NCBI GenBank assembly: GCA_039589315.1
Contig: JBDHHQ010000016.1
Coordinates: 1 to 64,000 of the forward strand
Origin: Gemmatimonadota bacterium
Lineage (GTDB): Bacteria > Gemmatimonadota > Gemmatimonadetes > Longimicrobiales > Gaopeijiaceae
DNA length: 64,000 nt
Direction: 5' to 3'
Under the pieces are notes generated by a model, which did not search any database, was not told the DNA's origin, and worked only from the letters and a program-made list of their open reading frames with translations. A program made the translations under genes and the position numbers. Below are positions 2,711-38,857 of this stretch, one piece after another (position 1 is the first letter of the stretch; each line of letters opens with the position of its first letter).

Positions 2711-2834
2711 CTCGGTGCGAGGTGGGTCAGTATGACTCAGGAGAAGGGCAGCGTGTAGCGAGCCACTCCAGTTCGCCGAGCACGATCTGCGTCCGGCGGC
2801 GTTGCTCCCCGCATGCCGGCCCGAAAGGTGCTGC

Positions 2835-3863: not shown

Positions 3864-3883
3864 GGGAATCCTCCTTCTATTGC

Positions 3884-3927
3884 CGATCCTGCAGTCGCGA
3901 TCCTGATGTCGCCGATCCTGTTATCGC
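3884..3927. repeat. Three imperfect tandem 14-15 bp repeats with core CGATCCTG
   Basis: CGATCCTG at 3884-3891, 3898-3905 and 3913-3920, each followed by NNNTCGC; just upstream of the RBS of the 2835-3863 gene. Confidence 0.6.
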
Positions 3928-3998
3928 CGGTGCCTCGATCGCGGCGCCCCTAGCAACCGCCGCCCCTCTTGTCGCGGCCCCGTTCTATGGTCAGCGTC

Positions 3999-4352: not shown

Positions 4353-4402
4353 GTGTGTACTGTATACTAACTAGTACACGCTGTCAAGCCAGATGCTGTC
4401 AA
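4353..4402 (-). promoter_or_regulatory. Sigma70-type promoter (probably leaderless) with an overlapping palindromic operator
   Basis: Minus strand TTGACA (4382-4387)-N17-TACAGT (4359-4364)-6 nt-ATG. Inverted repeat GTGTACT-N11-AGTACAC (4355-4379). Second TTGACAGC copy at 4395-4402. Confidence 0.75.
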
Positions 4403-4499
4403 AGATGTCAGAGACTGGGTGCCCGCTCGAGGACTGCGGGGCCTCCGGCGCCGGGGGCGAAAGCGCCGGACGCTCGCATCCCCATCTTCAGCCAGGAGC

Positions 4500-6419: not shown

Positions 6420-7065
6420 GCGTCACCTCCAGAATCAGTGTCTCGAAGCGCTTCGTCGCCTCCTCGGCGTCGTACGAGAGCCAGCGCCTCAGGATGTCCC
6501 ACTTGAACACGAACCCGAACACCTGCTCGAACCCGAACGGGTTCTGGTCCGAAAGGTCGCCCAGCAGCCGCCAGGACTGGTCCATGAGCAGGCCCTCCAG
6601 CTCCATGGCGTGGCCCTGCTCCAGGTGCGTCCTGGCCTCGTCGATCCAGGGGAAGACCGCACCGAGCCCGTAGTCGGTCTCCCCCCAACGAGCTTCGATG
6701 GTGCGGACATAGGGCCCCACTCCCCACCGCTCGTCTGGCGGCGTCCTGCCGTGAAGGCGCAGTCGGAGAGCCACGAGGACGGTGCGCATGTCCATCCGGA
6801 ACCGGAGCACCCGGCTCAGCGTGTCGCTCCCGAGGTGCCTCAGGGCGTCCTCGTAGAGCCGGGCAATCTGCTCCGTCGTGCGGGTGACGGGCTGGCGACC
6901 CCACGCCACGAGCTCGGCGGCCTGGTTCAAGTCCGCCGCGTCGTCGGGGTGCAGGAGCCCGAGCCGCTGCTCCAGGCGAAGCTGGCTCAGCGGGAGCCGG
7001 CCGGCGTGCCGAAAGTACGGAAGCGCGGGCAACCCCGAGACGAGCTGGTAGTAGCGGCGGGTCAC
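6394..7065 (-). CDS. DUF2764-family protein (subunit C-like position in V/A-ATPase operon)
   Basis: N-terminal YYQLVSGLPAL and C-terminal FGFEQVFGFVFKWDILRRW pattern; lies between subunits E and A. Confidence 0.8.
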   Translation of the reverse strand: MTRRYYQLVSGLPALPYFRHAGRLPLSQLRLEQRLGLLHPDDAADLNQAAELVAWGRQPVTRTTEQIARLYEDALRHLGSDTLSRVLRFRMDMRTVLVALRLRLHGRTPPDERWGVGPYVRTIEARWGETDYGLGAVFPWIDEARTHLEQGHAMELEGLLMDQSWRLLGDLSDQNPFGFEQVFGFVFKWDILRRWLSYDAEEATKRFETLILEVTRDHQQLFA

Positions 7066-7133
7066 GACGATTCAGCCTCGAACCAGGCTTGCGCCGGCAG
7101 GCGCGGGGGTTGCCCGGAGGCGAGCCGACGTCC

Positions 7134-7790
7134 TCACTGCCCGGCCTCCACCAAGATGGCGCGGTACCGCGGTAGAAGCAGCCCCAGCATCATCTCCGAG
7201 AGCGCCTCGTCGCTCAGATCGACCTCCAGGTCCTCTCCCTTCAGCTGCACCCGCGCGCCCCCGTGGAGATCGCTGGCCGGGATCAGCTCGATACCTTCCC
7301 GGAGCACGTTCCCCGAGAGGGCGGCCGCCGAGCGGCGCAGAAACTGCTCCAGCTCCTCGCTCGTCTCCTCGGCCATGGCCTGCGGAATGAGGATCGCGGC
7401 GTCACGATCCTGGATCACGTCGGTGGCCGCCCGGCCGGCCAGGACGAGGACGAGGTCCCGGAGCACGGTTCCGTCGGTGGTCACGTCGGTCACGAGCCGC
7501 CGCACGTGCTCCTCGAAGGCCGAGAAGACGGCCGTTCTGAGCGCCAGTCCCGTATCCCGCGCCGCCATCTTGAGCGCCTCGATGGACGCCGTTCTCTCGG
7601 TCTCGATCTCTTCCCGGGCCGCCTTGCGCATCGCCCCGGCCTCGGCTTTGGCCGCGGCCACGAGGCGGGCGGCCTCCGCCCGGCCCTCGGCCACCAGGCG
7701 ATCCGCCTCATCCCGGGCTGACTGGACGCCCTCGTCCCGGATGCGCTCGATGAGCTCCTGGACGCCTGAAGTCACTACCGATTCAGCCAT
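7134..7790 (-). CDS. ntpE: V/A-type ATPase subunit E
   Basis: GVQELIERIRDEGV, long Ala/Glu-rich coiled coil, C-terminal VDLSDEALSEMMLGLLLPRYRAIL. Confidence 0.88.
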   Translation of the reverse strand: MAESVVTSGVQELIERIRDEGVQSARDEADRLVAEGRAEAARLVAAAKAEAGAMRKAAREEIETERTASIEALKMAARDTGLALRTAVFSAFEEHVRRLVTDVTTDGTVLRDLVLVLAGRAATDVIQDRDAAILIPQAMAEETSEELEQFLRRSAAALSGNVLREGIELIPASDLHGGARVQLKGEDLEVDLSDEALSEMMLGLLLPRYRAILVEAGQ

Positions 7791-7799
7791 TTTTCGACC

Positions 7800-8246
7800 T
7801 CAACTCGGAATCGAAGGCGCCAGCACCAGCGCGAAGACGAACACGAACACCGCGAAGCCCTCGATCACCGCCGCCGGGGCGATGGAGATGCCGAACACCT
7901 CCGCCTTCGACTTGGACGCGTTGATCGCTGCGGCACACGCCGATCCCTGAGCCATGCCGCTCAAGAGCAATGCGACGCCCGTGAGGGAGCCCAACACGAA
8001 CAGGCCCGGGGCGTTCACGACGGTGACGGGCCGATTCAAGGTCAGCATCACGACGATGCCATAGATGGTCTGGGAAGACGGCATGGCGGCCACGCCGACG
8101 AACCGGCCGTAGCCACCTTCCACCTCCAGCATGGCGCCAGCGGCCGCGAGCCCTCCGCGGGCCACGCCCAGCATGCTCCCCATGCCGCCCAGGGCCAGCG
8201 GCGAGAAGATGCCCAACCACCCCAGCGTGATTACGAGTGCATCCAA
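7800..8246 (-). CDS. ntpK: V/A-type ATPase proteolipid subunit K (four-helix c subunit)
   Basis: Probable TTG start at 8246 after GGAGAG. Four hydrophobic segments with PSSQTIYG, AQG and a single carboxylate in AVIEGFAVF. Confidence 0.92.
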   Translation of the reverse strand: MDALVITLGWLGIFSPLALGGMGSMLGVARGGLAAAGAMLEVEGGYGRFVGVAAMPSSQTIYGIVVMLTLNRPVTVVNAPGLFVLGSLTGVALLLSGMAQGSACAAAINASKSKAEVFGISIAPAAVIEGFAVFVFVFALVLAPSIPS

Positions 8247-8250
8247 GGGA

Positions 8251-10014
8251 TCACTCTCCTTTCTTCTTGAACGGACGGAAGAGCGTGCCCTCTTCCGGAA
8301 GTCCCCAGTTGAAGAATTCGATGACGTTGAGCCGAAGGCCGTGGATGAACCCACTCGTCACGGCCAACACGAGATTGAGGGTGTGCCCCACCACCAGGAT
8401 CGTGAGCGCGGCGAGCAGGCCCACACCGGGAATCGCTTCCCGGGCGCCTGCCGCCATGCCGTTGAAGGCCACAGCCAGTGACGCCGACGCCAGTCCCAGG
8501 GCGAAAAGCCGCAGATAGCTCAGCACGTCGCCGAACAGCTGGGAAAGGCGGGTCAGTGCAGCCAGGCCCTTGCCGACCCGCCCCAGTGGGCGGGCCCCAT
8601 GACCCGAGAACGCGACCACCAGGAGGAGCCCCAACGCTGCCGCCACCAGGCCCGGCGTGCGCAGCGCCTCCAGGCCCGATTGCGTCGAGAGGAGCCCAGC
8701 GTACCCGCCCAGCACCACGCCCACCCAACCGATCGGAGCCAGGGCAGCGGGTGTGCGTCCTTTGCGCCCCGCGTCCATGAGGTTGGCGAGGGCCACGTGC
8801 AGCACCCCGATGGTCACCGCCAGGCCCATCATGACGGTGGTGTTGCTCATGTCCAGGACCGCCAGCCGGCCCAGAACGCCGTCGGGGTCGGGCGAGACGC
8901 CGAAGTACGAGCCCACGAGCACCCCGTAGCCCACCGTCGCCACCACCAGGGCCAGTAGCACCCAGCGCCAGCGGCTGCCGGCCGCCGAGGCAGACATGGG
9001 CTTCCAGAATCGCGCCAGGGGAAGCGCCAGCACCAGGCCGTACCCGGCGTCCGACACGATCATGGCAAAGAAGATGGCGAAGGAGTAGAGCACGGCCGCG
9101 GAGGGATCCCAGGACCGGTAGCCCGGCGTCTTGTAGAAGTTCACCAGGTCCTCGCCACCCCGGGCTCGGTCGTCGTTCTCGAGGAGCGTCGGCGGGGTCT
9201 CGTCCGGGTCGGGCGGGCGCGTCTCCAACACGACACCCCGCTCGTTCGCGAACTGCTTCAGCACGTCCAGAGATTCGTCGGGTGCCCACGCCAGGAGCGC
9301 GAAGAGAGGGTCCGACTCGAGGCACTGTTGGCCCGCCAGGTTTCGCCCGGCCAGGTCCTCCAGGTCGTCGAGGCTGCTGGACAGGAGCCCTCGCCAACGG
9401 GTCAGGCGGATGCGCTCCAGATGCGCGTCCTCCAGGGCCAGCTCGACCTCCTCGAGGCGCCGCTCCAGCTCGTGCCGGGAGACCTTGCCGGTCCGGACGC
9501 GAGGCGCCGGCACGCCGGTCGGCTCGCCCTCGGAAACGATCACCACATACGAGCTCCGGCCGTCCCTACCGACCTCTTCCCAGACGAGGTCGGTGGCCGC
9601 CAGGTCGGCGAGGCGGTTCCTGGGCACCACATAGAACCAGAGCCGCTGACCCGCCAGATCCTCCCGGAGGGGAAACGTGAAGTCGCCCCAGGGGCTCAGC
9701 GCTTCGATGCGCTGAATGAGGTGGTCCCGCTCGAGCTCCAGGTCGTGGGTACGCTCCTGGAGCGCCACGACCTCGGCTTCCACCGCCACCGCATCGAAGT
9801 CCGCCGGGTTGGTGGCCGGCCGCTGCTTCTGCGGACAGCGGTTCAGGTAGGCCAACGCTTCGCGGCTTCTCTTGGCCGGATCCCCTTCCACCATCCGGCC
9901 CGACACCAAGGGAATGAGCTCGAGGCAGCCCAGCTCCTGGAGCTCCTCCAGGACGGCGTCCTTCTGCGACTCGTGGCCCGCGATCGTGATCCGGCTCAGG
10001 GGGACGATGGCCAC
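8251..10014 (-). CDS. ntpI: V/A-type ATPase subunit I (a)
   Basis: MAIVPL start, PPTLLEN, FFAMIVSDAGYG, DVLSYLRLFAL (essential Arg), HGLRLNVIEFF. Confidence 0.95.
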   Translation of the reverse strand: MAIVPLSRITIAGHESQKDAVLEELQELGCLELIPLVSGRMVEGDPAKRSREALAYLNRCPQKQRPATNPADFDAVAVEAEVVALQERTHDLELERDHLIQRIEALSPWGDFTFPLREDLAGQRLWFYVVPRNRLADLAATDLVWEEVGRDGRSSYVVIVSEGEPTGVPAPRVRTGKVSRHELERRLEEVELALEDAHLERIRLTRWRGLLSSSLDDLEDLAGRNLAGQQCLESDPLFALLAWAPDESLDVLKQFANERGVVLETRPPDPDETPPTLLENDDRARGGEDLVNFYKTPGYRSWDPSAAVLYSFAIFFAMIVSDAGYGLVLALPLARFWKPMSASAAGSRWRWVLLALVVATVGYGVLVGSYFGVSPDPDGVLGRLAVLDMSNTTVMMGLAVTIGVLHVALANLMDAGRKGRTPAALAPIGWVGVVLGGYAGLLSTQSGLEALRTPGLVAAALGLLLVVAFSGHGARPLGRVGKGLAALTRLSQLFGDVLSYLRLFALGLASASLAVAFNGMAAGAREAIPGVGLLAALTILVVGHTLNLVLAVTSGFIHGLRLNVIEFFNWGLPEEGTLFRPFKKKGE

Positions 10015-26175: not shown

Positions 26176-28629
26176 TCATGGCTTCCGGCTCCCACCCGCA
26201 TCGGCCCGGGCGCCGGGGTCGTCGCCCAACAGCTCCTGCTCGAACCAGCGCGTCATGCGCCGGTAGCTGTCGCGCCGGCTGGCCTCTTCGCGCCAGCCGT
26301 GGGGCTCCACGGGGTAGACCACCAGATCGAAGTCCTTGTCCTTTTCCATCATGACCTGGGCCAGCCGGAACGAATCCTGGATCTGCACGTTGTTGTCCAC
26401 CAGCCCGTGTTGGATCTGAAGCCCACTCTGATAGCTGTCCACGTAGTAGACCGGGCTGGAGACGGTGTACGCCTCCTCGTCCTCGGTGGGTGACCCGTTC
26501 AGGATGCGACTCGTGTACCCGTGGTTGTAGTGGGCCCAATCGGTGACGGGGTAGCGGGCCACGCCGGCTCGCCACCGGTCCGGATGCCGGAACAGGGCCA
26601 TGACGGTGAAGAAGCCTCCGTAGGACCCCCCATACACCCCGATCCGGTCGCGGGCCACGCCATGATCTCTCTCGAGGATGTCCAGTAGAGCCAGCCCGCT
26701 GTCGATGTCGCTGACGCCCATCTGACGGTAGGCGTAGGTCCGGTTGGCGTGGCCGTACCCCGAGCTGCCCCGGTAGTCCAGGTTGGCGGTGACGAACCCC
26801 CGGTCGTGCATGTACTTGGCGTAGAGCTTCGCACCAGTGCGGCGCCAGCCCTTCGTGACGCCCTGGGCGCATTCGCCGCAGCCGTGCACGTAGACCACCG
26901 CCGCGCTGTTGGGATCGGGGGGCGACTCCCAGATCTCGGCCCACGTCTCGCCCCCGTCGTAGTCCTGGAAGCTGATGATCTCGCTCTCCAGGAGGGGGAG
27001 CCGGTAGAAGTCGTCGGTACCCGACTTGGTGATCCGGGTGGCCTCAGCCCCTGGCTGAGAGTCCAGCAGGTAGAGATCCCGCATCAGGCGTGGCGTTTCG
27101 AAGAGCGTGGCGACCCTCTCGCCGTCAGGCGACACCGCAGCCAGGTGCATGCCTTCCCCCCAGGTGATCCGCTCGAGGTCACCTCCCCGGGCCGGTAGCC
27201 GGTACAGGTGCTCTTCGCCGGGATGCTCCCTGCTCGTGGTCAGGTACCACCAACGCCCGTCCCGGGAAGGCCGGGCGCCCCGGACCTCCCAGGCGCCGTC
27301 GGTGAGCTGTGTCACGGTGCCATCCGTGTCGGCCAGGTACAGCATGGACCAACCGCTGGCCGTAGAGGCAAACGCGAATCCGCTCCCGTCGGGGAGCCAC
27401 TGCATCCATCCCGGCGACCAGCGTCCCTCGACCAGGGGGCCGCCGATCCAAGCGTCCTCATGCTGGTGGTCCACGACGGTCAGACCGCCGGTCTCCACGT
27501 CGATGAAGGCGATCCAGCGGTCCTTGTGATCCATGGAGAGGATCTGCACCACGCCGTGCTCCCCCGTGGGGCTCCAGAAGGGACCGTGCGTGACCACGGC
27601 CTTGTCGGTGGGAGCATCGGCCCACGTCACCTCGATGGAGTCGGGCAGAACAGCGGCGTCCACCGGAACGATGCCGAAACGGAACTCCGGCAGGGGCTCG
27701 CCCACCTTCGGACGCGCCGGCCGTGGCTCGGCGTAGCCGCTCTCGTTCACATACTCCAGGAAATGGGTCTGATGCTCGCCTTTGGGCGTCTTGACCTCCA
27801 GGAAGGTCATGTAGCGGCCGTCCGGAGTGAGGCGGACGCTCGTGGGCACGGCACCATTGGCCGTGGGAATGGCCTGGACGGGATCGACCGAGAGCGAACG
27901 CTGGACGCTGTCGGCGACCTCCTGGTCCCGCTTGCGCTTGCGAACGGTCTCGATCAAGTCGAGCTGTTGGTCCGCGAGCCACTTCGCCGCATCCGTCGAG
28001 TCGTCGGCCGCGAGCTCGTGCGGCGCCGCCAGCTGGCGCACGCGCCCATCCACGAGCTCCGCGACCCACAGGTCCCCCGCGTCCTGAACGAAGCGCATGG
28101 GCTCGGGACGGCCCGGACCTCCGCCCCCGGGCGCGTGGGCGAAGAACGCGTGCATCCCATCGGGGGAGAGCTCCAGATTGCGGAGCTCGCGCTCGCTCCG
28201 GTAGACCGGGCGCGTGCCCTCGGCGCCATCCCACACGAAGAGCACGCCATCCCGGGTCCACGCCGCCCGACTCGCGTCTGCCGACCAGACCACGTCCGAG
28301 GGCACCAGCGCAGCTTCGGCCGCGTCCAGCCGTCGAGCTTCGTCGCCGTCAGGGTCCACGGCGTACCACGGATCCGTGGCCGGCACCTGGCCAGGAGCCG
28401 GGTCTTCGCGCCATTGGAAGTAGATCCACGCGCCATCCGGGGACCACGTCACGTTCCTGGGCGCGAGCCCCATCCAGCGAGCGTCCAGGGACAGGTGCTC
28501 GAGCGTGAGCTCGAAACCGGGGTCCACGTCGTCCAGGGTCAGATCCGACTGCCGTAGGAGCTGCGCATCGGTCGGGGTGGCTTGCGCGGCCAGGACCAAC
28601 GCCAGCGCGCCGACGAGGGTGCGGGTCAT
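26176..28629 (-). CDS. Secreted S9 family (prolyl oligopeptidase/DPP-IV-like) serine peptidase
   Basis: Signal peptide; WSPDG-type propeller repeats; DYRGSSGYG, GGSYGG nucleophile, DNNV, EPHG. Confidence 0.92.
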   Translation of the reverse strand: MTRTLVGALALVLAAQATPTDAQLLRQSDLTLDDVDPGFELTLEHLSLDARWMGLAPRNVTWSPDGAWIYFQWREDPAPGQVPATDPWYAVDPDGDEARRLDAAEAALVPSDVVWSADASRAAWTRDGVLFVWDGAEGTRPVYRSERELRNLELSPDGMHAFFAHAPGGGGPGRPEPMRFVQDAGDLWVAELVDGRVRQLAAPHELAADDSTDAAKWLADQQLDLIETVRKRKRDQEVADSVQRSLSVDPVQAIPTANGAVPTSVRLTPDGRYMTFLEVKTPKGEHQTHFLEYVNESGYAEPRPARPKVGEPLPEFRFGIVPVDAAVLPDSIEVTWADAPTDKAVVTHGPFWSPTGEHGVVQILSMDHKDRWIAFIDVETGGLTVVDHQHEDAWIGGPLVEGRWSPGWMQWLPDGSGFAFASTASGWSMLYLADTDGTVTQLTDGAWEVRGARPSRDGRWWYLTTSREHPGEEHLYRLPARGGDLERITWGEGMHLAAVSPDGERVATLFETPRLMRDLYLLDSQPGAEATRITKSGTDDFYRLPLLESEIISFQDYDGGETWAEIWESPPDPNSAAVVYVHGCGECAQGVTKGWRRTGAKLYAKYMHDRGFVTANLDYRGSSGYGHANRTYAYRQMGVSDIDSGLALLDILERDHGVARDRIGVYGGSYGGFFTVMALFRHPDRWRAGVARYPVTDWAHYNHGYTSRILNGSPTEDEEAYTVSSPVYYVDSYQSGLQIQHGLVDNNVQIQDSFRLAQVMMEKDKDFDLVVYPVEPHGWREEASRRDSYRRMTRWFEQELLGDDPGARADAGGSRKP

Positions 28630-28716: not shown

Positions 28717-29946
28717 CTACGCGGCCGCTCGCCACCCTCGGGTCGGAGACCCGGGTCCGGCACCCTGACGACGGCGCTCCGCCCGGCGAGCCCTGCGAGC
28801 CAGGAGGCGCAGAGTGCTCGATCGGGCCCAGTAGAAGGGGCGTGCCAGCCGGTGCCCGAGCACCTGCCCCGGCGTCAGTGCGCCCGTCGAGGCGCGGATG
28901 TAGTCCCCGCTGGGGAGCAGCCACCACCACGCCAGCTTGGCCTGGACGGCCGCGGAGCGTCGGCGAGTGCCTCGCGACCAGCGACCGGCCGTCCGCCCCA
29001 TCCTCAGCGCCATGTCTCTCTGGAGGGGCGTGACGTCGACGGCGAGCTGGTCGAGCTCATCGGAGGCCCACTCGGGCACGAGGGCGTCGAGCTCCCGGAC
29101 CAGGTACCCGAGGGCCACGGCCATGGGGACCGCCGACCCGGTGCAATGGGCGACCTCCACGAGCGACCGCCAATCATGCCGACCCATATGTCGGATCAAC
29201 TGCCAGGCATCCACGGCCCAAACCAGCGAGCTGGACGTGGGAGTGGAGGCAGCGTGCACACACACGTGGTGCAGGTGGTCGGCCGCGGACAGCGTCGGAG
29301 TCGGACACCCGGCCACCGTAGTCATACGGCCACGCGAGAAGAGGTCGGACCACGGCACCTGGTAGGAGGCGGACCGGAAGAGCCCAGACTGGACCACGAG
29401 GGGGAGCCCGGTGGGGTGGGAGAAGGCGATCTCGTCGGGGTAGTCCGCCAGCTCCGGAGCCGGGCGGAATCCGGCCGTGGCGAGTGCGTCGGCCGGCAGC
29501 TCCGGAGCCTCGGGCGGGACCAGCAAGTTGACGTCGTGGCTGTGGCGGAGCCGCGGCTCATCGTACGCCGCGTAGCCGAGAGCCGCCCCTTTGAGGAGCA
29601 GATAAGGGGCGCCCGTCCGGCCCAGCGCCTCCAGCAGAGCCGCGAGAACCCGCTCCACCTCACGACAGCGGAGCTCCTCGTGAAACGCCGCCGTCCGGAG
29701 ACGGGTCACGAGCTCGGCCGGTGCCGGCGCCCCGTGCCGAGCGAGCCCAGCCGTGAGCACCGGCGCCAGACGACGCTGCCCCCGTCCGCCGAGGCCCAGA
29801 AACGCGGGGACGTCCTCGACGGAGGCCATGAAGCCGGTCCAGGCGTCCCGTCCAGCAGCCTCGTCGTGTAGGCAAGCCCGTAGCAGGAGCGTGCGGTGCG
29901 CGTCGGGCAGGAATCGCCCCACCGCTGCGCGCAGTGCCGGATGCAT
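28717..29946 (-). CDS. Nucleotidyltransferase family protein (NTP_transf_5-like), degenerate acidic motif
   Basis: LLKGAAL...Y...RHSHDVNLLV (DxN instead of DxD), DHLHHVCVH. Start placed at ATG 29946. Confidence 0.8.
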   Translation of the reverse strand: MHPALRAAVGRFLPDAHRTLLLRACLHDEAAGRDAWTGFMASVEDVPAFLGLGGRGQRRLAPVLTAGLARHGAPAPAELVTRLRTAAFHEELRCREVERVLAALLEALGRTGAPYLLLKGAALGYAAYDEPRLRHSHDVNLLVPPEAPELPADALATAGFRPAPELADYPDEIAFSHPTGLPLVVQSGLFRSASYQVPWSDLFSRGRMTTVAGCPTPTLSAADHLHHVCVHAASTPTSSSLVWAVDAWQLIRHMGRHDWRSLVEVAHCTGSAVPMAVALGYLVRELDALVPEWASDELDQLAVDVTPLQRDMALRMGRTAGRWSRGTRRRSAAVQAKLAWWWLLPSGDYIRASTGALTPGQVLGHRLARPFYWARSSTLRLLARRARRAERRRQGAGPGSPTRGWRAAA

Positions 29947-29959
29947 GGACGTCCGCCGG

Positions 29960-30676
29960 CTAGGCCGCGCCTGCGGCCGGGTTGGTGCCCGCAACCCGCT
30001 TTCGGTCCAGCGCGCCCTTGAGGATGCCGAAGAACTCATCGAGGCTCCGGCTGGCGTGCGTGCGGCTGACGTTGTCCGGATGCAGGCGACGCAGGACCAT
30101 CACGTCGTCCAACAGCTCGCCCCTGACGTCCAGCTCTCTGGCCCGCAGGAACCAGTCCATGGAGTCGCCGTGCCCCAGAGAGGTGTTGAAGGGCCCGACC
30201 CGCCCGAAGGCGGTCTTCCGGGCCAGGAGCGCTTGCGTAACGTATGCGGCGATGGCCTGTCCCCGAGCGTGGCTCTGGAACTGCCGTGCCTCGTGGGCGA
30301 GCTCGTCTTCCCAGAAGTTCTGAGCGTAGCAGACCACGAAGTCGAGGTCTGGACGGGCGTTCAGAACGCCGACCTGCCGCTTCAGCTTCTCGGCCGTCCA
30401 GAGATCGTCCGCATCCAGGAATGCCACGAACTCTCCGTTCGTCAGACCGAGACCGTGGTTTCGGGTCGTGGCGGGTCCTGCGTTGTTCTGACGTACGTAG
30501 CGCACGGCCTCGCCGAACCCCCGGACCACGTCCGGCGTCGCGTCGGTCGAGCCGTCATCGACCACGATGATCTCGATGGGCAGGTAGGTCTGGGCGAGGA
30601 TGCTGTCCAGCGCCTTGGCCAGGTACCGCTCTCCGTTGTAGACCGGAACGATGCAACTCACCAAATGCGTGATCAT
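29960..30676 (-). CDS. GT2 family glycosyltransferase
   Basis: VSCIVPVYNGE, VVDDGSTD, RNHG, AFLDADDLW. Start overlaps the kinase stop (ATGA). Confidence 0.93.
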   Translation of the reverse strand: MITHLVSCIVPVYNGERYLAKALDSILAQTYLPIEIIVVDDGSTDATPDVVRGFGEAVRYVRQNNAGPATTRNHGLGLTNGEFVAFLDADDLWTAEKLKRQVGVLNARPDLDFVVCYAQNFWEDELAHEARQFQSHARGQAIAAYVTQALLARKTAFGRVGPFNTSLGHGDSMDWFLRARELDVRGELLDDVMVLRRLHPDNVSRTHASRSLDEFFGILKGALDRKRVAGTNPAAGAA

Positions 30677-31791
30677 GAGGTCACCTCCGTCAGGAGTCGT
30701 GCCACGCGGTCCGGGATCCGCTCCATGTCGCGGCCCAGCTCCAGCCAGAATGTGGGGATCGTCTCCACCATCTCGCCGAGACGCGCCAGCCCGTCCGGCC
30801 TCGCGCACGCGTGGGGGAGCTGGAGGAGCGTGCTGGGCGCGAGCCTGAGCAATGCTTCGAGTCGGCTGGCCGGCCGGACGCGGGTCTCTTCCGCATCCAC
30901 GACACGCGGCAACGCCAAAGCACGAATCGAGGTCCGCGCCGACAGGCCGTCGGGCTTCGCGTCGGCCAGTAGTACCAGGGACTTGTCCTCACCCGGCAGG
31001 CTTCCCGGAATCGCGTAGGGCGAGAGCCAGGGAAATCGCTCCAGGTGATGGGGCTCGAGGTGTGTGGAGGAATACATGCTGTGGCCTACGTATCCGTCCG
31101 GGGTTCGCTCGACCCCCACGTAGTCGTCGGCCTGGTACTGGAACCCGGCCTTGAGGCACGCGAGAGCCGTCGTCGACTTGCCCGATCCTCCTTGCCCCCC
31201 GAGCAGAATGCCCTGGCCGTCGAGTGACACGAGCCCCGCGTGGACGGGCTGGACCCTCCGGTCCTGATGCCAGAGAAGCAGCGCAGAATGGAGCGGACGT
31301 CCCTGCTCGTAGAGGGTGAGCTGACGGGCGTCTCCGACCCAGCCCGCGATGCGACGCTGGGCCCGATCGAAGCCTGCCACTGTCTGAGCGCGCTCATGAA
31401 TCAAGACCCGGCCGTCGTCCGAGGCCGTGACCTGTCCGCGCACGGCCAGGTCGGGGGCAGCTTCGATACCGGGGACCGTCACGCCGGTCTCGGCCTCGTC
31501 CCACATGTCGATGAACAGCCCCACGGCGTCGTCGTCGACCGGCTCACGGCGCAGGTGCCGGAACGGCCGATCGAGGGCCTCGGCCAGACGGCTGCCGAGA
31601 ACCCGAACGCGCACGGGACGACCCGCCAGCGTGTAGTACCGGGTCAGCGCCGCTGCAGACCCGTCGCCGCCGAGAGCGAGCTCGAACGCGGCCGCCAGGT
31701 CGTCGAAGGTCCGTCGGGCCTGGGCCGCTCCGCGCCGACCCGCCGCAAGGTGGGGGTCGGGAGGAGCGAGGGTGGCCTGCTCAGGCGTCAT
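30673..31791 (-). CDS. HPr kinase-like (HprK-related) P-loop kinase
   Basis: VHAGLV...GGQGGSGKSTT...ADDYV. Start at 31791 overlaps the end of the RRE gene. Confidence 0.85.
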   Translation of the reverse strand: MTPEQATLAPPDPHLAAGRRGAAQARRTFDDLAAAFELALGGDGSAAALTRYYTLAGRPVRVRVLGSRLAEALDRPFRHLRREPVDDDAVGLFIDMWDEAETGVTVPGIEAAPDLAVRGQVTASDDGRVLIHERAQTVAGFDRAQRRIAGWVGDARQLTLYEQGRPLHSALLLWHQDRRVQPVHAGLVSLDGQGILLGGQGGSGKSTTALACLKAGFQYQADDYVGVERTPDGYVGHSMYSSTHLEPHHLERFPWLSPYAIPGSLPGEDKSLVLLADAKPDGLSARTSIRALALPRVVDAEETRVRPASRLEALLRLAPSTLLQLPHACARPDGLARLGEMVETIPTFWLELGRDMERIPDRVARLLTEVTS

Positions 31792-32260
31792 CGGCTGGGT
31801 CCTGCCACGGGGTCTGGGCCAGGCCGGGCATGGGCGGATCCAGGGCCAGGAGCTCCGCCATGTCGGTAAAGGACTCGAGCTGGGGCGCCTCATAGGCCTC
31901 GGCGGCCCGGTCCCACGCCGTCGCCACCGCTTCCACCGGGACGTTGCCGCGGGTCTGGACCAGCCCCTCGTCCATCAGCCGGGTCGCCAGGCTTTCGACG
32001 TCCGCGAGCGCGGCGGCCTCGCTCACGGCATACCGCCGGGTCAGGGACTCGGCCGTCTCGGCCAGGCTGTGCCCCGCGACCAACCACTCCAGGACGAACG
32101 CCCCCGTGCCCGTCAGGCTGTAGTAGTAGCCGTTCGCCAGGTTCATGATTATGGCCTCGCCATCCATGACCTTCGCGGCCACGTCCGCCTCGTTGAGAGC
32201 GAGACGGTCGGCCTGGCCGAGCCTCACTCCGCTGTTCTGGATCGCTGATATCTCCGCCAT
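31781..32260 (-). CDS. PqqD family / RiPP recognition element (RRE) with C-terminal lasso-leader-like extension, 159 aa
   Basis: AAGGAG RBS; VMDGEAIIMNLANGYYYSLTGTGAFVLEWL...DVESLATRLMDEGLV (PqqD pattern), then YEAPQLESFTDMAELLALDPPMPGLAQTPWQDPADDA. Confidence 0.88.
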   Translation of the reverse strand: MAEISAIQNSGVRLGQADRLALNEADVAAKVMDGEAIIMNLANGYYYSLTGTGAFVLEWLVAGHSLAETAESLTRRYAVSEAAALADVESLATRLMDEGLVQTRGNVPVEAVATAWDRAAEAYEAPQLESFTDMAELLALDPPMPGLAQTPWQDPADDA

Positions 32261-32280
32261 GGGATCTGTCTCCTTGATCA

Positions 32281-33423
32281 TTAGGACGAGAGCCTTCTCC
32301 TGGAGCCCCGTCGGTTCCGTGCCACCCGTTCGTACAAAGCCTCGTACCGCTCCACGTACTGCTCCCAGCCGAAGTCCCGACCGGCCCTGTGGAGAGCGGC
32401 GCGGCCCATCGCTTCGGTCTCCTCCCGCTGCGCGAGGATGGCCTCCATCGCCCGGGCCCAGTCGTCCGGGCTCTCTGGCGGGACCAGCAACCCGGTCTCG
32501 CCGTCTGCCACCACCTCGACCAGCCCCCCGACCCGTGCGGCGATCACCGGCCGACCGAGTTGGGCGGCTTCCAGAGCCACCAGGCCGAAGGCCTCCCGTC
32601 TGGACGGCACGAGCAGGGCCGTGACCCGGTTGATCGAGTCCTGGACACGGGCCGGATCCACCCAGCCCGTCAGCTCGACCCGGTCGACCAGGCCGTGCTC
32701 CTGCACGAGCCGCTTCACGTCCGCGCGAGCCGGCCCATCTCCGGCAAGCACCATCCGTGCCGCCGGGAATCGGGCCGAGACCTGGTGGAAGGCCCGCACG
32801 GCGGTGTCGAAGCCCTTGTCGTGCACCATGCGGCCCAGGCAGAGCAGCACGGGTGGATCCCACGGCAGTGGCGTAGGCTGAACACCGGGCACCTCCAGCG
32901 CGTTGGGGATCACCGAGTGGGGAGTCCGGCTGGGCGATGCCAGCCCCCCGTAGCTCTGGCGCACGGCCTCGCTGCAATACGCGATCCAGTGGGCGTCCCG
33001 CAAAGCCCCTGAGACCAATGCGCTTAGGGCGTCCACGGCTTCCAGGGTCTCCGCCTGCTGCATCGTCACCAGGACGGGGGGTGCCTGGGCCGACGGCGTC
33101 GTGAGCCGCTGGAAGAGCGTACCCGGCCCGACCTGGCCGATGTGCACCACGTCCGGGCCGAAGTCCGCCCGTGCGGCGGACGCCTGGTAGAGGGTCTCCC
33201 GGAACAGTCGCCGATCGCCCTCGCTCAACGCCTGCCAGAAGGGGAATCGCAGGATGCGAACGCCTTCATGTCGGTCGTCGCGAGGGAGATCGCTGCCGTC
33301 GTGTTGTGTGAAGACCACACACTCGTGACCTCGGTCCGTCAGCGATCGGAGCAAGGCCGCCGAGATCCGGGGCACCCCACCGACTGCCGGCCAGTAGCCC
33401 TCCGTCCAGTAGAGGATCTTCAT
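32281..33423 (-). CDS. GT4 family glycosyltransferase (paralog A)
   Basis: MKILYW...GG, LCLGRMVHDKGFD, GDGP, PSRREAFGLVALEAA (EX7E). Confidence 0.93.
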   Translation of the reverse strand: MKILYWTEGYWPAVGGVPRISAALLRSLTDRGHECVVFTQHDGSDLPRDDRHEGVRILRFPFWQALSEGDRRLFRETLYQASAARADFGPDVVHIGQVGPGTLFQRLTTPSAQAPPVLVTMQQAETLEAVDALSALVSGALRDAHWIAYCSEAVRQSYGGLASPSRTPHSVIPNALEVPGVQPTPLPWDPPVLLCLGRMVHDKGFDTAVRAFHQVSARFPAARMVLAGDGPARADVKRLVQEHGLVDRVELTGWVDPARVQDSINRVTALLVPSRREAFGLVALEAAQLGRPVIAARVGGLVEVVADGETGLLVPPESPDDWARAMEAILAQREETEAMGRAALHRAGRDFGWEQYVERYEALYERVARNRRGSRRRLSS

Positions 33424-34196
33424 CAAACGAGCGCCCGCCGTGACGGATTCGCGGTGGATGCGCCCTCTCCACCGGACGACCACGCGGCGGAGGACAACCT
33501 CGTAGCCCTTGACTCCGGGGCAGACGACTCCGTGGCGGACCTCGCGCCGATGGCGTAGCGCAGGTGGAAACCCTCCAGATCGCCCTCGAGGCTGTCCCGG
33601 AGCAGCTCGTTCAGCTCCTCCGGGCGGACGTGAACGCCGAACGGGTCCGCCTTGGGCGTCTGTCGATGGAAGATGCCGATGCGTACCGCGACGAAGGTTC
33701 GCAGCCGGCCCGTATCCACGAACACGTGACCGGCCATCTCCCCGACTCCTTTGGACAACCCGTACGGACACGTGGGACCCAGCAGTTGGGGATCCTCCGG
33801 GAGTCCCGCTTTCCCCCGCTCCTCGAGGAGTTTCGTGACCGACCACAGGGAGCTGGCGAACACCACTCGGGGGATGCGGCGCGCGGCTGCCTCCTCGAGG
33901 ACGTTCCAGGTCACCTTGATGTTCGACTCGAGCACCTCTGACCAAGTCGAAGCGGGACTGACCACCGCTGCCAAGTGGAGAACCGCGTCCGCGCCATCGA
34001 ATGCCCGCTGCCAGCGGGAGCGGCGACGCCCGACCGCGCGCAAGAGGCGGCCCGGGCGGCGGCTGAGGTCGGCGCGGAGAACCGGACCTCGGCGCGGCGC
34101 CCGCACGTCGATGCCGACGACCTCATGTCGCGCAGCGAGGTACGGAATCACCGTGCGTCCGATCCGCCCTCGCGCCCCCGTGACGACGATGCGCAT
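33423..34196 (-). CDS. NAD-dependent epimerase/dehydrogenase (extended SDR, uronate dehydrogenase-like)
   Basis: VVTGARGRIG, HLAA, VFASS, YGLSK, VRIG. Confidence 0.88.
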   Translation of the reverse strand: MRIVVTGARGRIGRTVIPYLAARHEVVGIDVRAPRRGPVLRADLSRRPGRLLRAVGRRRSRWQRAFDGADAVLHLAAVVSPASTWSEVLESNIKVTWNVLEEAAARRIPRVVFASSLWSVTKLLEERGKAGLPEDPQLLGPTCPYGLSKGVGEMAGHVFVDTGRLRTFVAVRIGIFHRQTPKADPFGVHVRPEELNELLRDSLEGDLEGFHLRYAIGARSATESSAPESRATRLSSAAWSSGGEGASTANPSRRALV

Positions 34197-34200
34197 GGGC

Positions 34201-35331
34201 TCAGGCGGCCCGCCGTATCAACCGTCGATACATCGCGTCGTACTCGGCCACGTACCGGTCGAGGGAGAAGCGCTCCGTGGCGCGCATGTGGCCCTGCTCG
34301 CCCAGGGACCGAGCCTGATCCGGGCTCCGTAGAAGCCGTTCCAGGGCGCCGGCCATGGCGGCGGGGTCCTCCTTGGGGACCGTCAGGCCGGACTCCTGAT
34401 GTGCCACGACCTCGACGAGACCGCCGACTCGAGTGGCCACGACGGGTCGCCGCATGAGCGCCGCCTCGACTGCTACCAGACAGAAGGGCTCCTCCCAACG
34501 GGATGGGATGACCACAGCCGAGGACCGGTTCAGCTCCGCGGGCACGTCCTCCGGGCTTACCCAGCCCGTGAACTCCACCGCGTCCTCGATCCCGAGGCTC
34601 CGAGCCAAGCTCTCCAGAGCCGCTCGTTCCGGTCCGTCACCCGCCACGGTGAGCTGGGCCTCCGGGAACGTCTCGCGGAGCAAGGCGAAGGCGTGTACCG
34701 CGGTGTCGAATCCCTTGTCGTGCTTCAGACGGCCCAGGCAGAGCAGCCGCGGGGGATCGAAGGGCAGGGGCGTCGGTTCGAGGACCGGCGTATCCAGACC
34801 GTTGTAGACGACGCTGGACCTGCCCACGATGTCGGGAGCGGCCCGGTGGGCGTCGGCGAGAACGGCGCCGGAATTGGCTGTCACCCAGTCCGCGCCCCGA
34901 AGCAGCCGCGTGATCAGGCTGTCGTCCGAGTACTCCCGGGGGAGCGGTGACCGAATGGCCAGGATCCAGGGTTCGGCCTCACGGGACGCGCTGGCCATGT
35001 GGAAGTAGCCACTGGGCCCCGCGAAGTTCACGTGGGTGATGGTCGGGCGAAACTCCGCCCTCAGCCGTGTGACCGCCTTGCCCATACGAAGCATGCCCAA
35101 GGGGTCCCGCGCCTCCAGGACCTGCCGGAACGGGAAGCGATGGATGGGCACTCCGTCGCGGACCTCGAAATCGGGCAGGTCCATCTCGGCGTGGGCCGTG
35201 ACTACGGCGATCTCGTAGCCCCGCTCCCGTAGCTCCTTCAGGAGCTTGGCGCTCAACACCTCCACGCCGCCGATGTAGGGCCAGAAGAGCTCGGTCCAGT
35301 AGAGCAGTCTCATCCCGTTTTCCCCGGTCAT
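34201..35331 (-). CDS. GT4 family glycosyltransferase (paralog B)
   Basis: LLYWTELFWPYIGG, LCLGRLKHDKGFD, GDGP, PSRWEEPFCLVAVEAA. TAATG coupling to the upstream nucleotidyltransferase. Confidence 0.93.
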   Translation of the reverse strand: MTGENGMRLLYWTELFWPYIGGVEVLSAKLLKELRERGYEIAVVTAHAEMDLPDFEVRDGVPIHRFPFRQVLEARDPLGMLRMGKAVTRLRAEFRPTITHVNFAGPSGYFHMASASREAEPWILAIRSPLPREYSDDSLITRLLRGADWVTANSGAVLADAHRAAPDIVGRSSVVYNGLDTPVLEPTPLPFDPPRLLCLGRLKHDKGFDTAVHAFALLRETFPEAQLTVAGDGPERAALESLARSLGIEDAVEFTGWVSPEDVPAELNRSSAVVIPSRWEEPFCLVAVEAALMRRPVVATRVGGLVEVVAHQESGLTVPKEDPAAMAGALERLLRSPDQARSLGEQGHMRATERFSLDRYVAEYDAMYRRLIRRAA

Positions 35332-36611
35332 TACGTACCCTCCAATCCCAGCATGCCCTGGCGCCAGAAGCGCAGGCTCTCCCGCCCCCGTTGGGAGGCG
35401 GCGAGCCCCATGGCGCGAAGGAACGCCAGGGCGTTGTAGGCCAGGAGCTGGACGATTCTCCAGCTCCCCACGATCGGTCTGAAACTTCCCTTGGCCGCTT
35501 CTTCCGACTTCAACACCGCCATCGGTCGACTCCAGATCATCTCGACCAGGAACGCCACCCGGTCCCTCCAGCGTGTCAGCGTCCACAGCCGCAAGGAGCG
35601 ATACGCCGCGCGACGGACCGCGGCGTGACGTGTGATGGTGGCGTGAACCGGGTCCAGAAGCGCCAGCTGCAGGCGTGTCAGGGGGGGAAGGTCCAGCTCG
35701 GCGATGGCCGTGTCGGGCACCGGGGTGCCCAGGATCGTGCGGGCCAGCTGTAGCGCCAACGCCAGCCGCAGCTCCCCTCCGCAACTCAGGGCGGTCCGGG
35801 CCAGCTCCCGCCAGTCCAACTCCGGGCTGTGGCTTACGATCCGGTGGATGTCGACGACCCGCTTCAGCTGCGTGAAACCGCTTTCCTTGAACTGATGAGC
35901 CAGGTGAAGGACCATGTCTTCGGCACAGGGGACCCGCAGCCTCGACCCGTTGGGACCCGGGCGATCCGTCGCTCGTGCCCAGAAGCCCCGAGCGTCCGGC
36001 ACCACCGGAGAGCCGGGCACGTCCAGTCCCCAGTGGATCTCACAGCAGAATCCGTTGCGGTGCACCATGGGAACGTGGTAGTGACCGGCCATCAGGGTAT
36101 CGAGGTCCTGCTCCGGCCACTCCGGCTCGTAGCCGGCGCGCCGGGCCAGGGCCATGGCGTCGGCGACCCGCTCCGGCTCGACGAGAACGTCCAGGTCGCT
36201 GAGAGATCGCTCCACGGAGTCCTCTATGACCGTCGCCCGAAGCGCCGCCCCCTTGAGGAGGACCATGGACGGCCCGTTCCGGTGGAAGAGCGTGGCGAGA
36301 CGGTCCCGTTCCATGTCCCAGAGCATGGCCTGCCGCTCCAGAAGACGCAGGGGCTCGAGAACCTCCTGCGCCGCCATCTGCCCCACGACCCTCTCCAGGC
36401 GCGCACGCTGGAGGTGGCGCAGTGCCAGGCCCAGCACCCCGTGCTCCTGAGCGAGGCGGTGGAAGGCCTCCCGAACGGGCCGTTCCTTCATGGCCTCCAG
36501 ACCGACCAGGGGTGCGTCGGGATCGCCGGTGCGTCGAACCAGCGCCACCAGCAGGCGCTCGTGAGCGTCCAGACGCTGACGGGGAAGAATGGACCTGATG
36601 CCCGGGCTCAT
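35331..36611 (-). CDS. Nucleotidyltransferase family protein (NTP_transf_5-like), intact motif
   Basis: LLKGAAL...RSLSDLDVLV (DxD), CEIHWGL, EDMVLHLAH. Start placed at ATG 36611. Confidence 0.85.
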   Translation of the reverse strand: MSPGIRSILPRQRLDAHERLLVALVRRTGDPDAPLVGLEAMKERPVREAFHRLAQEHGVLGLALRHLQRARLERVVGQMAAQEVLEPLRLLERQAMLWDMERDRLATLFHRNGPSMVLLKGAALRATVIEDSVERSLSDLDVLVEPERVADAMALARRAGYEPEWPEQDLDTLMAGHYHVPMVHRNGFCCEIHWGLDVPGSPVVPDARGFWARATDRPGPNGSRLRVPCAEDMVLHLAHQFKESGFTQLKRVVDIHRIVSHSPELDWRELARTALSCGGELRLALALQLARTILGTPVPDTAIAELDLPPLTRLQLALLDPVHATITRHAAVRRAAYRSLRLWTLTRWRDRVAFLVEMIWSRPMAVLKSEEAAKGSFRPIVGSWRIVQLLAYNALAFLRAMGLAASQRGRESLRFWRQGMLGLEGT

Positions 36612-36979
36612 GCGGTTGCGGACCCTCGGTGTCGAAGATGATCGGCGGGACGTCTCCCACTGGGACCAGGCGAAGGCAAGCACCGTGCCCCTTCACCGAC
36701 GGCGTTCGACAACGGGTTGAACGGCTTCGGTTTATGGTGTCTGGCTCCTTCACACGTCCCTCGCTCGACCGTGTCGCGCTCCGGGCACCTGGTGGGAACC
36801 GCGGCATGATCCGTGCACTTTCCCGATGCCCGCCCGCTTCGGGGCGGTCGCGGGTGACGCAGCGAGGGCTATGCATGTCCACAGGGACGGTTCCGGCCAG
36901 GCCGACAACGACGTCGGCGCCGAGGCCATCCGCGGCCGGACCGGCTGCCCGGCGCTGACCGATCGCCCGCCACGCGACT

Positions 36980-38857
36980 GTGGCATCCACGCGACAGGTG
37001 CCGATGCAGATTCCGGCTTGGCCGCACATCAAGAGTCTCTTCCGCCGTCAGCGGCGGCTCATGGGCCGTTTCGTGGTCACGTCGCTGGGAGAGTCCGTCC
37101 TGACCATGGCAGGGATCCTACTCGTCAAGGAGTTCCTGTCGGGGGTGCTGGGAGGGGACGGGGGCATGGCCTCGCGGGCAGCCGAGGTGCTGGGGCCCGG
37201 TGTGGCGCTGTGGACCGTCGCGGCCCTGCTCCTGGGTACGTACGTGGGCGCCAGCCTGCTCCGCTACGACAACTCGGTCACGCAGCAACGGATCGTCAAG
37301 GTCCTCGAGCTGGGGGTCATGGAGCGGCTGGTCCGACAGGTGCTGTCCCTGTCCGTCTCCTTCGTCGAGCGCCAGAGTCACGGAGACATCATCCAGGCCG
37401 TGCGTTCCGACGTCGCGTCACTGCGGGAAGTGGTTCTTTCCTACGCCCGCATGTTCCTGGACGGCATGGTGACCGTGGGCCTGCTCTTCGCGGCGATCAT
37501 GCTTTCCCCGGCCCTCACGCTCTTCGCCCTTCTGGCGTTGCCCCTCGGCGTGTTCCCGCTCTTGATGATCGGCCGCGCGACGCGGGAGAAGTCGTTCGAG
37601 GTCCGCGAGACCCGCTATGCCCTCTTCGACGCGGTTCTCCAGATCCTCCGGGGGATCCGGGTCACGAAGGTCTACCACGGTGAGGGGGCGGCGGCCCGGG
37701 AGGCCGTGCGGAAGGGGAGCGCGCACTTCGACGCGCTCATCGAGATGGTCCGCATCCGTGCCATGTCGCGGGTGGTGCTCCAGTCACTCTCCGGACTCAG
37801 CCTGGTGATCGTGGTGGTTGCCGGCGGGTTCCAGGTCATGAGCGGGGCCCTGTCCTGGCCGTCGTTGCTCGCCTTCCTGATGGCCATCCGGGCGCTGCAC
37901 ACGCCGCTGAACTCGGTCAACGCCGCGTACGTCCAGGTCAAGCGGCAGGGCGCGGCGCTGGACCGCATCGAGGACCTCCTCCGCGAGCGTCCCGACGTGG
38001 CCGACCCCCCGGGTGCAGTCCCGCAGGAGCTGGCGTCCGGACAGGTCTCCTTCGACCAGGTCCGCTTCTCCTACGCCGAGCAGGACGTGCTGCGGGGTGT
38101 GTCCTTCGACGTGGCGCCGGGGGAGACGATCGGAATCGCCGGCCCGTCAGGCGCGGGAAAGTCCACGATCCTGAGCCTGGTGGCTCGCTTCTACGATCCC
38201 ACCGACGGGTCCGTCCGCACAGACGGGCGCAACCTGCGGGAGTACCGGTCGGCGGACGTCTACCAGAGCGTGGCCATCGTGACGCAGCAGCCCTTCCTGT
38301 TCTCGGCGTCCGTGCTCGACAACATCGCCTGCGGACGGCCGGGCGCGTCCGTCGACGAGGTCGTCGAAGCCGCCAAGGCGGCCGAGATCCATGACGAGAT
38401 CCTGGCACTGGAGGACGGCTACGATACGCTGCTCGGCCGGGGCGGCCGGGAGATCTCGGTGGGACAGGCTCAACGCGTCAACATCGCTCGGGCCCTGCTC
38501 AAGGAAGCCCCCATCCTCCTCCTGGACGAGGCCACGGCGAGCCTCGATTCCCTCTCGGAGGAGCGGGTGCAGCGTGCCATCGACCACCTGATGCAGGGAC
38601 GAACCACCTTCATCGTGGCCCACAGGTTGTCAACGCTGAGAGGGGCGGACAGGATCCTGGTCCTCGAGGACGGCCGGCTGGTGGCGTCCGGTCCACACGA
38701 GGACCTGCTGCTCGGCTGCCCGCTGTACTTCCGGCTCTGGGAGACCCAGCACCTGGGCTTCACGTCGCCTGACCGCGTGACCGGGGTCGACGAGGGCGAC
38801 CACCGGGCCATCCTGACCTCCGCCTCCGCCTCCGCCTCCGAGCGGACACACCCCTGA
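36980..38857 (+). CDS. ABC exporter, fused permease-ATPase (MsbA/PglK-like, no C39 peptidase domain)
   Basis: N-terminal TM region; GPSGAGKS, ISVGQAQR, LLLDEAT, AHRLST. Confidence 0.92.
   Translation: MASTRQVPMQIPAWPHIKSLFRRQRRLMGRFVVTSLGESVLTMAGILLVKEFLSGVLGGDGGMASRAAEVLGPGVALWTVAALLLGTYVGASLLRYDNSVTQQRIVKVLELGVMERLVRQVLSLSVSFVERQSHGDIIQAVRSDVASLREVVLSYARMFLDGMVTVGLLFAAIMLSPALTLFALLALPLGVFPLLMIGRATREKSFEVRETRYALFDAVLQILRGIRVTKVYHGEGAAAREAVRKGSAHFDALIEMVRIRAMSRVVLQSLSGLSLVIVVVAGGFQVMSGALSWPSLLAFLMAIRALHTPLNSVNAAYVQVKRQGAALDRIEDLLRERPDVADPPGAVPQELASGQVSFDQVRFSYAEQDVLRGVSFDVAPGETIGIAGPSGAGKSTILSLVARFYDPTDGSVRTDGRNLREYRSADVYQSVAIVTQQPFLFSASVLDNIACGRPGASVDEVVEAAKAAEIHDEILALEDGYDTLLGRGGREISVGQAQRVNIARALLKEAPILLLDEATASLDSLSEERVQRAIDHLMQGRTTFIVAHRLSTLRGADRILVLEDGRLVASGPHEDLLLGCPLYFRLWETQHLGFTSPDRVTGVDEGDHRAILTSASASASERTHP

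Follow-up and report, generated by a model that had tools for sequence, protein, structure and literature searches.

In this study, we describe a real, conserved and uncharacterised family of proteins in which the recognition domain of a peptide-modifying system is continued, in the same chain, by a tail resembling the leader peptide that such domains bind. The family is represented in the window, the whole stretch of 64,000 nucleotides from a Gemmatimonadota bacterium analysed here, by a protein of 159 amino acids encoded on the minus strand at 31781..32260 (translated from 31784-32260). The protein, termed RRE-tail protein in the following, consists of a PqqD-type recognition element (RRE) as used for ribosomally made peptides that are modified after translation (RiPPs), a linker, a leader-like YxxPxL strand and an acidic motif with an Asp-Pro. 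It is very probably self-loaded, its RRE being occupied by its own tail, and it probably acts uncleaved. Tentatively, we propose that it is a carrier with Asp141 as likely point of covalent attachment.

The RRE-tail protein and its homologs

The gene is preceded by an AAGGAG (32270-32275), 9 nucleotides 5' of the ATG. Translation bore out the open reading frame (ORF), the letters of the tail and the positions of Y123, P126, L128, S130, T132, L138 and T150 given in an earlier reading of the DNA made without database searches (the sequence-only reading), and its order of PqqD fold, linker and YxxPxL leader mimic in cis holds as well. The RRE/PqqD domain comprises residues 18-104 (31949..32209, minus strand like all parts of the protein), as judged from PF05402, the fold match and conservation; the PqqD/PF05402 match itself covers residues 35-101 with 49 bits at a cut-off of 23.4. 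On a probably exposed sheet face E35 and Y46 are invariant and S48 is near-invariant (Y46 in 100% and S48 in 93% of 320 sequences, with Thr in a further 5%), and D87 takes the position of the Tyr-binding Asp of α3. A variable linker follows (residues 105-122; 31895..31948), with at least 19 residues from L100 to Y123 in 320 of 320 sequences (median 22). The leader mimic YEAPQL and the strand ESFT form residues 123-132 (31865..31894). The conserved acidic helix-turn motif DMAELLALDPPMP spans residues 133-145 (31826..31864; helix predicted at 134-138) and contains Asp141, the candidate reactive or docking residue, whose codon lies at 31838-31840. The C-terminal end, residues 146-159 (31784..31825), is variable and modelled with low confidence; homologs have 7-34 residues beyond the Asp-Pro.

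A full-length search yielded 138 proteins among 673 candidates and a profile search 255 representatives at E<=1e-30. The anchor pattern was fitted by 257 of the 265 proteins examined and missed by eight; after 11 proteins longer than 210 amino acids had been set aside, 246 single-unit homologs were left. The tail consensus is YxxPxLxx[Y/F]xDMx[D/E]LLxxDP. Among the 246, [YFW]xxPx[LVIFM] stands at a fixed register in 240, D133 is kept in 97%, M134 in 98%, and P143 and P145 in 100%. An alignment of 115 homologs shows Y123, M134, L138, A139, L140, D141, P142, P143 and P145 without variation, and synonymous codons vary freely at the invariant tail sites (78 loci). Asp141 is present in 252 of 254 single-unit proteins, that is, in the 246, which are anchored on it, and in six of the eight misses; the tail is visible in all eight, with Asn or Glu in place of Asp141 in two. 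Of the pattern YxxPxL...D..ELL.LDP...W suggested by the sequence-only reading, the part from YxxPxL to Asp-Pro is conserved, but a Trp after it occurs in only 133 of 246 homologs. As the queries for these sets had included the tail, a further search used only the RRE (residues 16-104). This gave 12 matches, all of 149-171 amino acids; the tail was seen in 11, and the twelfth is the window's own cluster.

A second tail subtype, ending in DP[IV]H[DE]V..GW, occurs in Cyanobacteriota and in Gemmatimonadota-side genomes. D133, D141, P142 and the His are kept in 30 of 30 DPIH-type tails (pattern-anchored), six of them without YxxP. Asp133 and Asp141-Pro142 are kept in both subtypes and across about a dozen phyla, as read from record titles. 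The distribution is patchy: the family was found in 11 of 301 genomes of its own phylum, and 301 genomes of the cyanobacterial phylum gave 21 near-full-length matches. All 12 tail matches in the own-phylum genomes lie in frames of at least 147 amino acids, and nine of ten examined are RRE fusions. A search for stand-alone tail peptides gave 32 matches of 32-74 amino acids, 12 beginning inside the last RRE helix or strand and the others in linker or motif; judging by their sequences, these short proteins appear to be gene calls cut short.

The 6.67-Mb genome has a single match to the strict tail motif, and G+C content is flat across the gene cluster. No curated family covers the tail, the protein has no match in the phage collection searched, and its ESM Atlas matches are PqqD clusters without names only. 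The literature searched, including motif strings and supplements and excluding subscription journals, held no description of the motif or the architecture, although the data sets of PMC12710340 may list these RREs. Small genomes of the cyanobacterial phylum (L109-L114) hold a divergent subtype whose tail is extended and lacks YxxP, and the RRE-tail loci L111 and L113 adjoin phage-integrase genes.

Predicted docking of the tail in its own domain

The protein was modelled with AlphaFold2 on an alignment of 115 sequences (mean predicted local distance difference test score, pLDDT, 83.9). Residues 121-130 reach a pLDDT of 93, as against 65 for the linker (residues 111-120), and a strand forms at 129-131. 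The best structural matches of the model are lasso B1 proteins, TbiB1 (Z 12.0, root-mean-square deviation (rmsd) 1.5, 84 aligned residues) and TfuB1 (Z 11.8). The tail strand is predicted to pair antiparallel with a sheet strand that we infer to be β3. Covariation in 320 sequences (effective number about 254) points the same way. The pairs Y45-S130 (z 5.5) and Y45-T132 (z 4.8) rank 2 and 4 overall and 1 and 2 of 2720 tail-RRE pairs, and both belong to the 23 pairs of the antiparallel β3 register, which was derived from the text on the PbaB1 structure (PMC13381572) and from the alignment, and was defined after the covariation ranking had been seen. Shuffling the tails among rows, which removes phylogeny too, gave a maximum z of 2.9. 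The minimum linker length of 19 residues is likewise in keeping with docking. The docking of YEAPQL on β3 anticipated by the sequence-only reading is hence what model and covariation predict, and with YxxPxL predicted between β3 and α3 the RRE would be permanently loaded. Two points weigh on the other side: the D87-Y123 covariation (z 2.9) is not above the shuffled null, and model and covariation fit cis and domain-swapped docking alike.

Tandem proteins hold two or three RREs. In P0123-P0126, P0130, P0133, P0153, P0175 and P0207 the RREs keep the leader-like strand, and an intact Asp-Pro motif stands on one unit only. Fusions of kinase and RRE occur in both orders; P0163 and P0237 have three RREs fused to a kinase, with the Asp-Pro motif internal, and the kinases of L109-L112 carry a C-terminal degenerate RRE without this motif. 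From this we take the strand to be a structural part of the domain and the Asp-Pro a site of its own that is required once, and a C-terminal core is unlikely to be released. In P0136 the YxxPxL strand occurs twice in tandem after one RRE, with the DM..DP motif after the second copy only.

Lasso and LPP features

In the window protein the position of the lasso Gly (Y+9, counted from the Tyr of YxxPxL) is Thr and that of the lasso Thr (Y+15) is Leu. Among the 246 homologs Gly is found at Y+9 in nine and Thr at Y+13 to Y+16 in at most one. Scores against the NCBIfam lasso-RRE models stay below the cut-offs (48.7 against 70 and 42.1 against 80). A scan for B2 proteases (PF13471) and S26 peptidases took in 11 genes of the window, 31 representatives of clusters, 48 accessory ORFs and, from 15 full-flank loci, 131 of the 283 unassigned ORFs, and gave no match. 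The absence of the lasso Gly and Thr and of B2 had been noted by the sequence-only reading. No lasso cyclase was found in the same scans and no Asn_synthase match on contig C16; one AsnB with an intact glutaminase domain was seen among the scanned neighbours, in L005 only. A recurring free precursor was not found either: 97 small ORFs with [YW]xxPx[LVI] occur in 58 of 112 loci (at least four of these being duplicates), and their eight cross-locus pairs are duplicates or fragments of larger genes. None of the 97 is of the FET type, and the tail has LLxLD at the place of FET.

An S9/DPP-IV-like peptidase with a signal-peptide-like N-terminus is encoded directly downstream of the cluster (26176-28629, minus strand). 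As a processing enzyme it was rejected in view of this N-terminus, a lasso isopeptidase score of 45 against 400 bits and its occurrence in one other scanned locus only. The sequence-only reading had left a choice between a self-loaded precursor and an uncleaved carrier or scaffold. The lack of cleavage signals and the internal motif of the kinase fusions support the latter branch.

Elsewhere in the genome, on contig C64 (about 2700-9950; L081, L083, L118), lies a complete lasso cluster, which holds the genome's only B2 above the cut-off and serves as an internal contrast to the RRE-tail cassette. It comprises an NTP5 nucleotidyltransferase, a tail-less RRE (8397-8597), a cyclase, the B2 protease and an ABC exporter. 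Its free precursor (about 8020-8187), recovered by our small-ORF scan as a control, has a canonical leader with Gly and Thr and a core with two Cys, and its HprK-like kinase, on the opposite strand, has ED in place of DD.

The coupled kinase

The gene for an HprK-like kinase of 372 amino acids (30673..31791, minus strand; PF07475) overlaps the stop of the RRE-tail gene by 11 nucleotides. The catalytic His-Lys-Asp-Asp set is intact (H184 in 64/64, K205 in 63/64, D222 in 57/64 and D223 in 63/64 sequences). The kinase model (pLDDT 93) matches phosphoenolpyruvate carboxykinase (PEPCK) over both domains (Z 17.5, rmsd 5.5, 306 residues) and HprK over the C-terminal domain (Z 14.7, rmsd 2.4, 135 residues); a full two-domain PEPCK fold, beyond the HprK domain alone, is predicted. 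R165 corresponds to the second Lys of PEPCK's KK motif in the alignment; 62/64 sequences have Lys or Arg there, and the C64 kinase is without an equivalent Lys or Arg. Lasso kinases sought in plasmids as further comparators were not found, so that the active-site comparison is with this one lasso-cluster kinase. The N-terminal residues H79, W97-D98, D142-R143, E162 and R165 are conserved. Against the HPr-rel-A, HPr-rel-B and SynChlorMet models the kinase scores 22-30 bits at cut-offs of 125-200 (22.3 against 200 for HPr-rel-A), and the RRE-tail protein has no match to TIGR04353.

The gene cassette

The kinase gene is joined by an ATGA overlap to that of a GT2 glycosyltransferase (29960..30676, minus strand; 238 amino acids; PF00535), which is followed by a PF14907 nucleotidyltransferase (NTP5 2; 28717..29946, minus strand) with DVN in place of the DxD metal motif. 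On the other side of the RRE-tail gene, also on the minus strand, lie a GT4 glycosyltransferase (32281..33423; PF00534), an NAD-dependent epimerase/dehydratase (33423..34196; PF01370), a second GT4 (34201..35328; PF00534) and NTP5 1 (35331..36683; PF14907, PsmN-like family) with DxD intact. The eight genes form a tightly coupled run in the order NTP5, GT4, epimerase, GT4, RRE-tail, kinase, GT2, NTP5, and a divergent MsbA/HepA-like ABC exporter is encoded by an accessory gene (36980..38857, plus strand).

The core of this cassette recurs. Hidden Markov models of our own making detected GT2 in 74, the kinase in 71, NTP5 in 69, GT4 in 42, the epimerase in 23 and the ABC exporter in 16 of 81 loci. 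The 34 full-flank loci had GT2 in 34, NTP5 in 32 and the kinase in 30, and 30 further loci, four of which duplicate earlier ones, had GT2 in 27, the kinase in 25 and NTP5 in 23. The gene next downstream of RRE-tail is the kinase in 40 of 80 cases, GT2 in 23 and NTP5 in 8. The coupled kinase, named as partner by the sequence-only reading, is thus the commonest downstream neighbour and is tied to RRE-tail here by the overlap, but with GT2 or NTP5 often in its place the partner need not be the kinase alone. At least two NTP5 ORFs are present in 52 of 86 loci (the metal-motif pattern failed to parse 41 of 138 ORFs); together with the DVN of NTP5 2 in the window, this makes a pair of one active and one degenerate enzyme possible. 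Accessory genes encode sugar-tailoring enzymes, namely epimerase, sulfotransferase, FkbM methyltransferase and GT8.

In three loci (L020:5023-8118, L014 and L074) a single ORF encodes both NTP5 and the ABC exporter as a fusion, which links the nucleotidyltransferase to export. A DUF6817/HD-domain gene stands beside the cassette in 7 of 81 loci (L009, L012, L014, L019, L034, L043, L080) and a phosphodiesterase gene in 6 of 81; it is possible that their products release or recycle a phosphate-linked product.

Proposed mechanism and alternatives

In the mechanism that we propose, the uncleaved RRE-tail protein would offer its DMxxLLxxDP motif to the kinase, nucleotidyltransferases and glycosyltransferases encoded with it. 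The kinase would dock on a composite face (E35, Y46, S48 and F/Y131) and phosphorylate the carboxylate of Asp141. By analogy with PsmN, which acts on the phospho-Ser of pseudomycoidin, the DxD nucleotidyltransferase might cap this phosphate with a sugar, and GT2/GT4 and variable tailoring enzymes would extend or decorate it; the glycan could then be handed on or exported. Asp141 is at Y+18, where phospho-Ser3 of LPP also stands. Acyl-phosphate activation of a carrier carboxylate has a precedent in LysW. Taken as a whole, with the leader-locked RRE as a reusable protein carrier for phospho-glycan assembly by way of an aspartyl phosphate, a PF14907 sugar cap and a GT2/GT4 glycan, this scheme is doubtful.

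Several points weigh against the Asp141 carrier. Acyl phosphates are labile. The characterised kinases of this kind all phosphorylate Ser hydroxyls, and nothing in the kinase demands a carboxylate acceptor, since the full His-Lys-Asp-Asp set is kept. In 4 of the 34 full-flank loci no kinase was detected within 10 kb. The Asp141 counts depend on the motif as anchor, and the searches behind them had used the tail as part of the query; moreover, 2 of 254 proteins have Asn or Glu in place of this residue, and L090 has Glu. The Y+18 match with LPP may be coincidence, and a β-bulge in LppA shifts the structural register (PMC13381572). Finally, a docking surface explains the invariance of the Asp-Pro equally well.

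Such a surface is the core of a possible, if somewhat doubtful, alternative, in which the self-loaded RRE and DMxxLLxxDP are a non-covalent scaffold or activator that docks on and switches on the kinase, the nucleotidyltransferase or GT2. The acceptor of these enzymes would be another molecule (a sugar, a lipid or a different protein), in a route from kinase through nucleoside diphosphate sugar to glycosyltransferase built from RiPP machinery. The invariant tail residues are mostly hydrophobic or Pro (M134, L137, L138, L140, P142, P143, P145), the kinase, set amid sugar enzymes, has a predicted two-domain fold of the cleft type seen in small-molecule phosphotransferases, and kinase-RRE fusions come in both orders, with the degenerate RRE of L109-L112 lacking the Asp-Pro. 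However, a conserved pathway with a small-molecule acceptor does not recur, RRE-bound peptide is the substrate of the closest characterised pairs of kinase and PF14907 enzyme, and the Asp-Pro stays the best conserved element also in proteins that have lost YxxP.

It is unlikely that the protein is a fused LPP-like precursor, with Ser/Thr residues of the tail (or Tyr131) polyphosphorylated and hexosylated and the tail either freed by a housekeeping protease or left in place. The enzyme families are shared with LPP and pseudomycoidin, some Ser or Thr follows YxxPxL in 224 of 246 tails, position 132 is Ser/Thr in 16 of 30 DPIH tails, and position 131 is Tyr in 76% of homologs. Yet 131 is Phe in the window protein, the motif is internal in kinase fusions, no peptidase recurs and no Ser/Thr position is conserved. 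S130, T132 and T150, proposed as substrate residues in the sequence-only reading, do not bear this role out: among the 246 homologs these positions are Ser/Thr in 15%, 40% and 28%, and 22 tails have no Ser/Thr after YxxPxL. Beyond P145 Ser/Thr make up 392/3226 residues, no enrichment over the 588/4423 of the linker (p=0.15), and Ser is the last residue in 23 of 246. The suggested short Pro/Asp-rich core can be reduced to very little: in L052, L054, L063 and L070 the part after the Asp-Pro is 7 residues long and has no hydroxyl or acid.

Very unlikely is an autocatalytic or enzyme-assisted clip at Asp141-Pro142, with an Asp anhydride through which the RRE would become attached to a glycan or an amine, in the manner of RTX self-processing modules and GDPH proteins. 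Such clip-and-link chemistry has described examples (PMC7078468, PMC8267560), the Asp-Pro is universal, and in the DPIH subtype a His stands two residues on in 30 of 30. The context here is LDPP or xDP[IV]H and not GDPH, however; the DPP subtype is without this His, no self-processing module is present, and the kinase would be left unexplained. Least probable of all is a hydroxyl of the RRE sheet (Ser48 or Tyr46) as acceptor, with the tail only positioning the kinase: Y46 and S48 are conserved as given above, against Gly or Asn at the Ser position in solved lasso RREs, but 6 of 23 DPIH-type loci have Gly in place of S48, and mid-strand residues are unlike the flexible-peptide Ser targets of this kinase family. 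Asp141 is the one residue whose mutation separates these hypotheses.

Relation to known systems

Borosins and LysW/amino-group carrier proteins combine a substrate or carrier with a recognition or catalytic domain in one chain. As with the carrier peptides of pearlins (PMC9303977), folds and enzymes differ and the likeness is one of logic only. The RRE-tail cassette works like the tailoring module of LPP or phospho-lasso systems and is a member of neither. In the systems for linear polyphosphorylated peptides (LPP), described with the proteins LppA/K/B/S/D/N (Popov et al. 2026, PMC13381572), the kinase acts on the Ser found at leader position Y+18. Both systems have a discrete-type RRE, YxxPx[V/L], an HprK-like kinase, an uncharacterised NTP transferase, no cyclase, an ABC exporter (here in the 16 loci only), a glycosyltransferase-rich setting and the (here putative) modified residue at Y+18. 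LPP alone has a separate precursor YxxPxVLxHQxIxFETxxS with Ser at Y+18 and a variable core, a FET cleavage motif and an SpI (S26) leader peptidase, and it is found mostly in Bacillota. In contrast, RRE-tail has RRE and leader in one chain, no recurring peptidase, Asp at Y+18, a near-invariant motif region and GT2 as core gene, in hosts of about a dozen other phyla. With paeninodin (PadeK) and pseudomycoidin (PsmK/PsmN) it shares a B1-type RRE fold, YxxPxL and a His-Lys-Asp-Asp kinase, and with pseudomycoidin also a DxD nucleotidyltransferase tied to hexosylation of phosphate; PsmN-type enzymes put hexose on phosphate, and PsmN needs DxD (PMC6993621, PMC9266682). Unlike these phospho-lasso systems it has no B2, cyclase, leader Gly/Thr, C-terminal Ser or free precursor. 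A PqqD-family protein beside an HprK-related kinase is also found in the HPr-rel-A, HPr-rel-B and SynChlorMet systems (TIGR04352/04353, TIGR04355, TIGR04249/04248).

In RiPP mining, a discrete RRE is assumed to have as its ligand a precursor separate from itself. A leader in cis explains a large class of 'orphan' clusters of PqqD, HprK-like kinase, PF14907 and GT2. The family further offers a way into what PF14907 enzymes of the PsmN/LppN kind do and why phospho-RiPP genes occupy polysaccharide loci, both left open in PMC13381572 and PMC6993621. LppB is insoluble without leader (PMC13381572); an RRE that is self-loaded by nature and probably soluble would lend itself to engineering as a scaffold. 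If the carrier scheme is true, about a dozen bacterial phyla would possess, in this soluble protein, an equivalent of the lipid-phosphate carrier of glycans.

A cassette in a cultured cyanobacterium

A compact copy of the cassette on a plasmid of a cultured cyanobacterium, Crinalium (L115; NC_019735.1, 5896-17248), makes the system testable, and no peptidase is annotated in it. It consists of RRE-tail, two NTP5, the kinase, an FkbM methyltransferase, two GT-A enzymes, an oxidoreductase, SMP-30, TPR and ABC genes. The plasmid is of 44 kb and mobilizable, and the cassette adjoins a group II intron.

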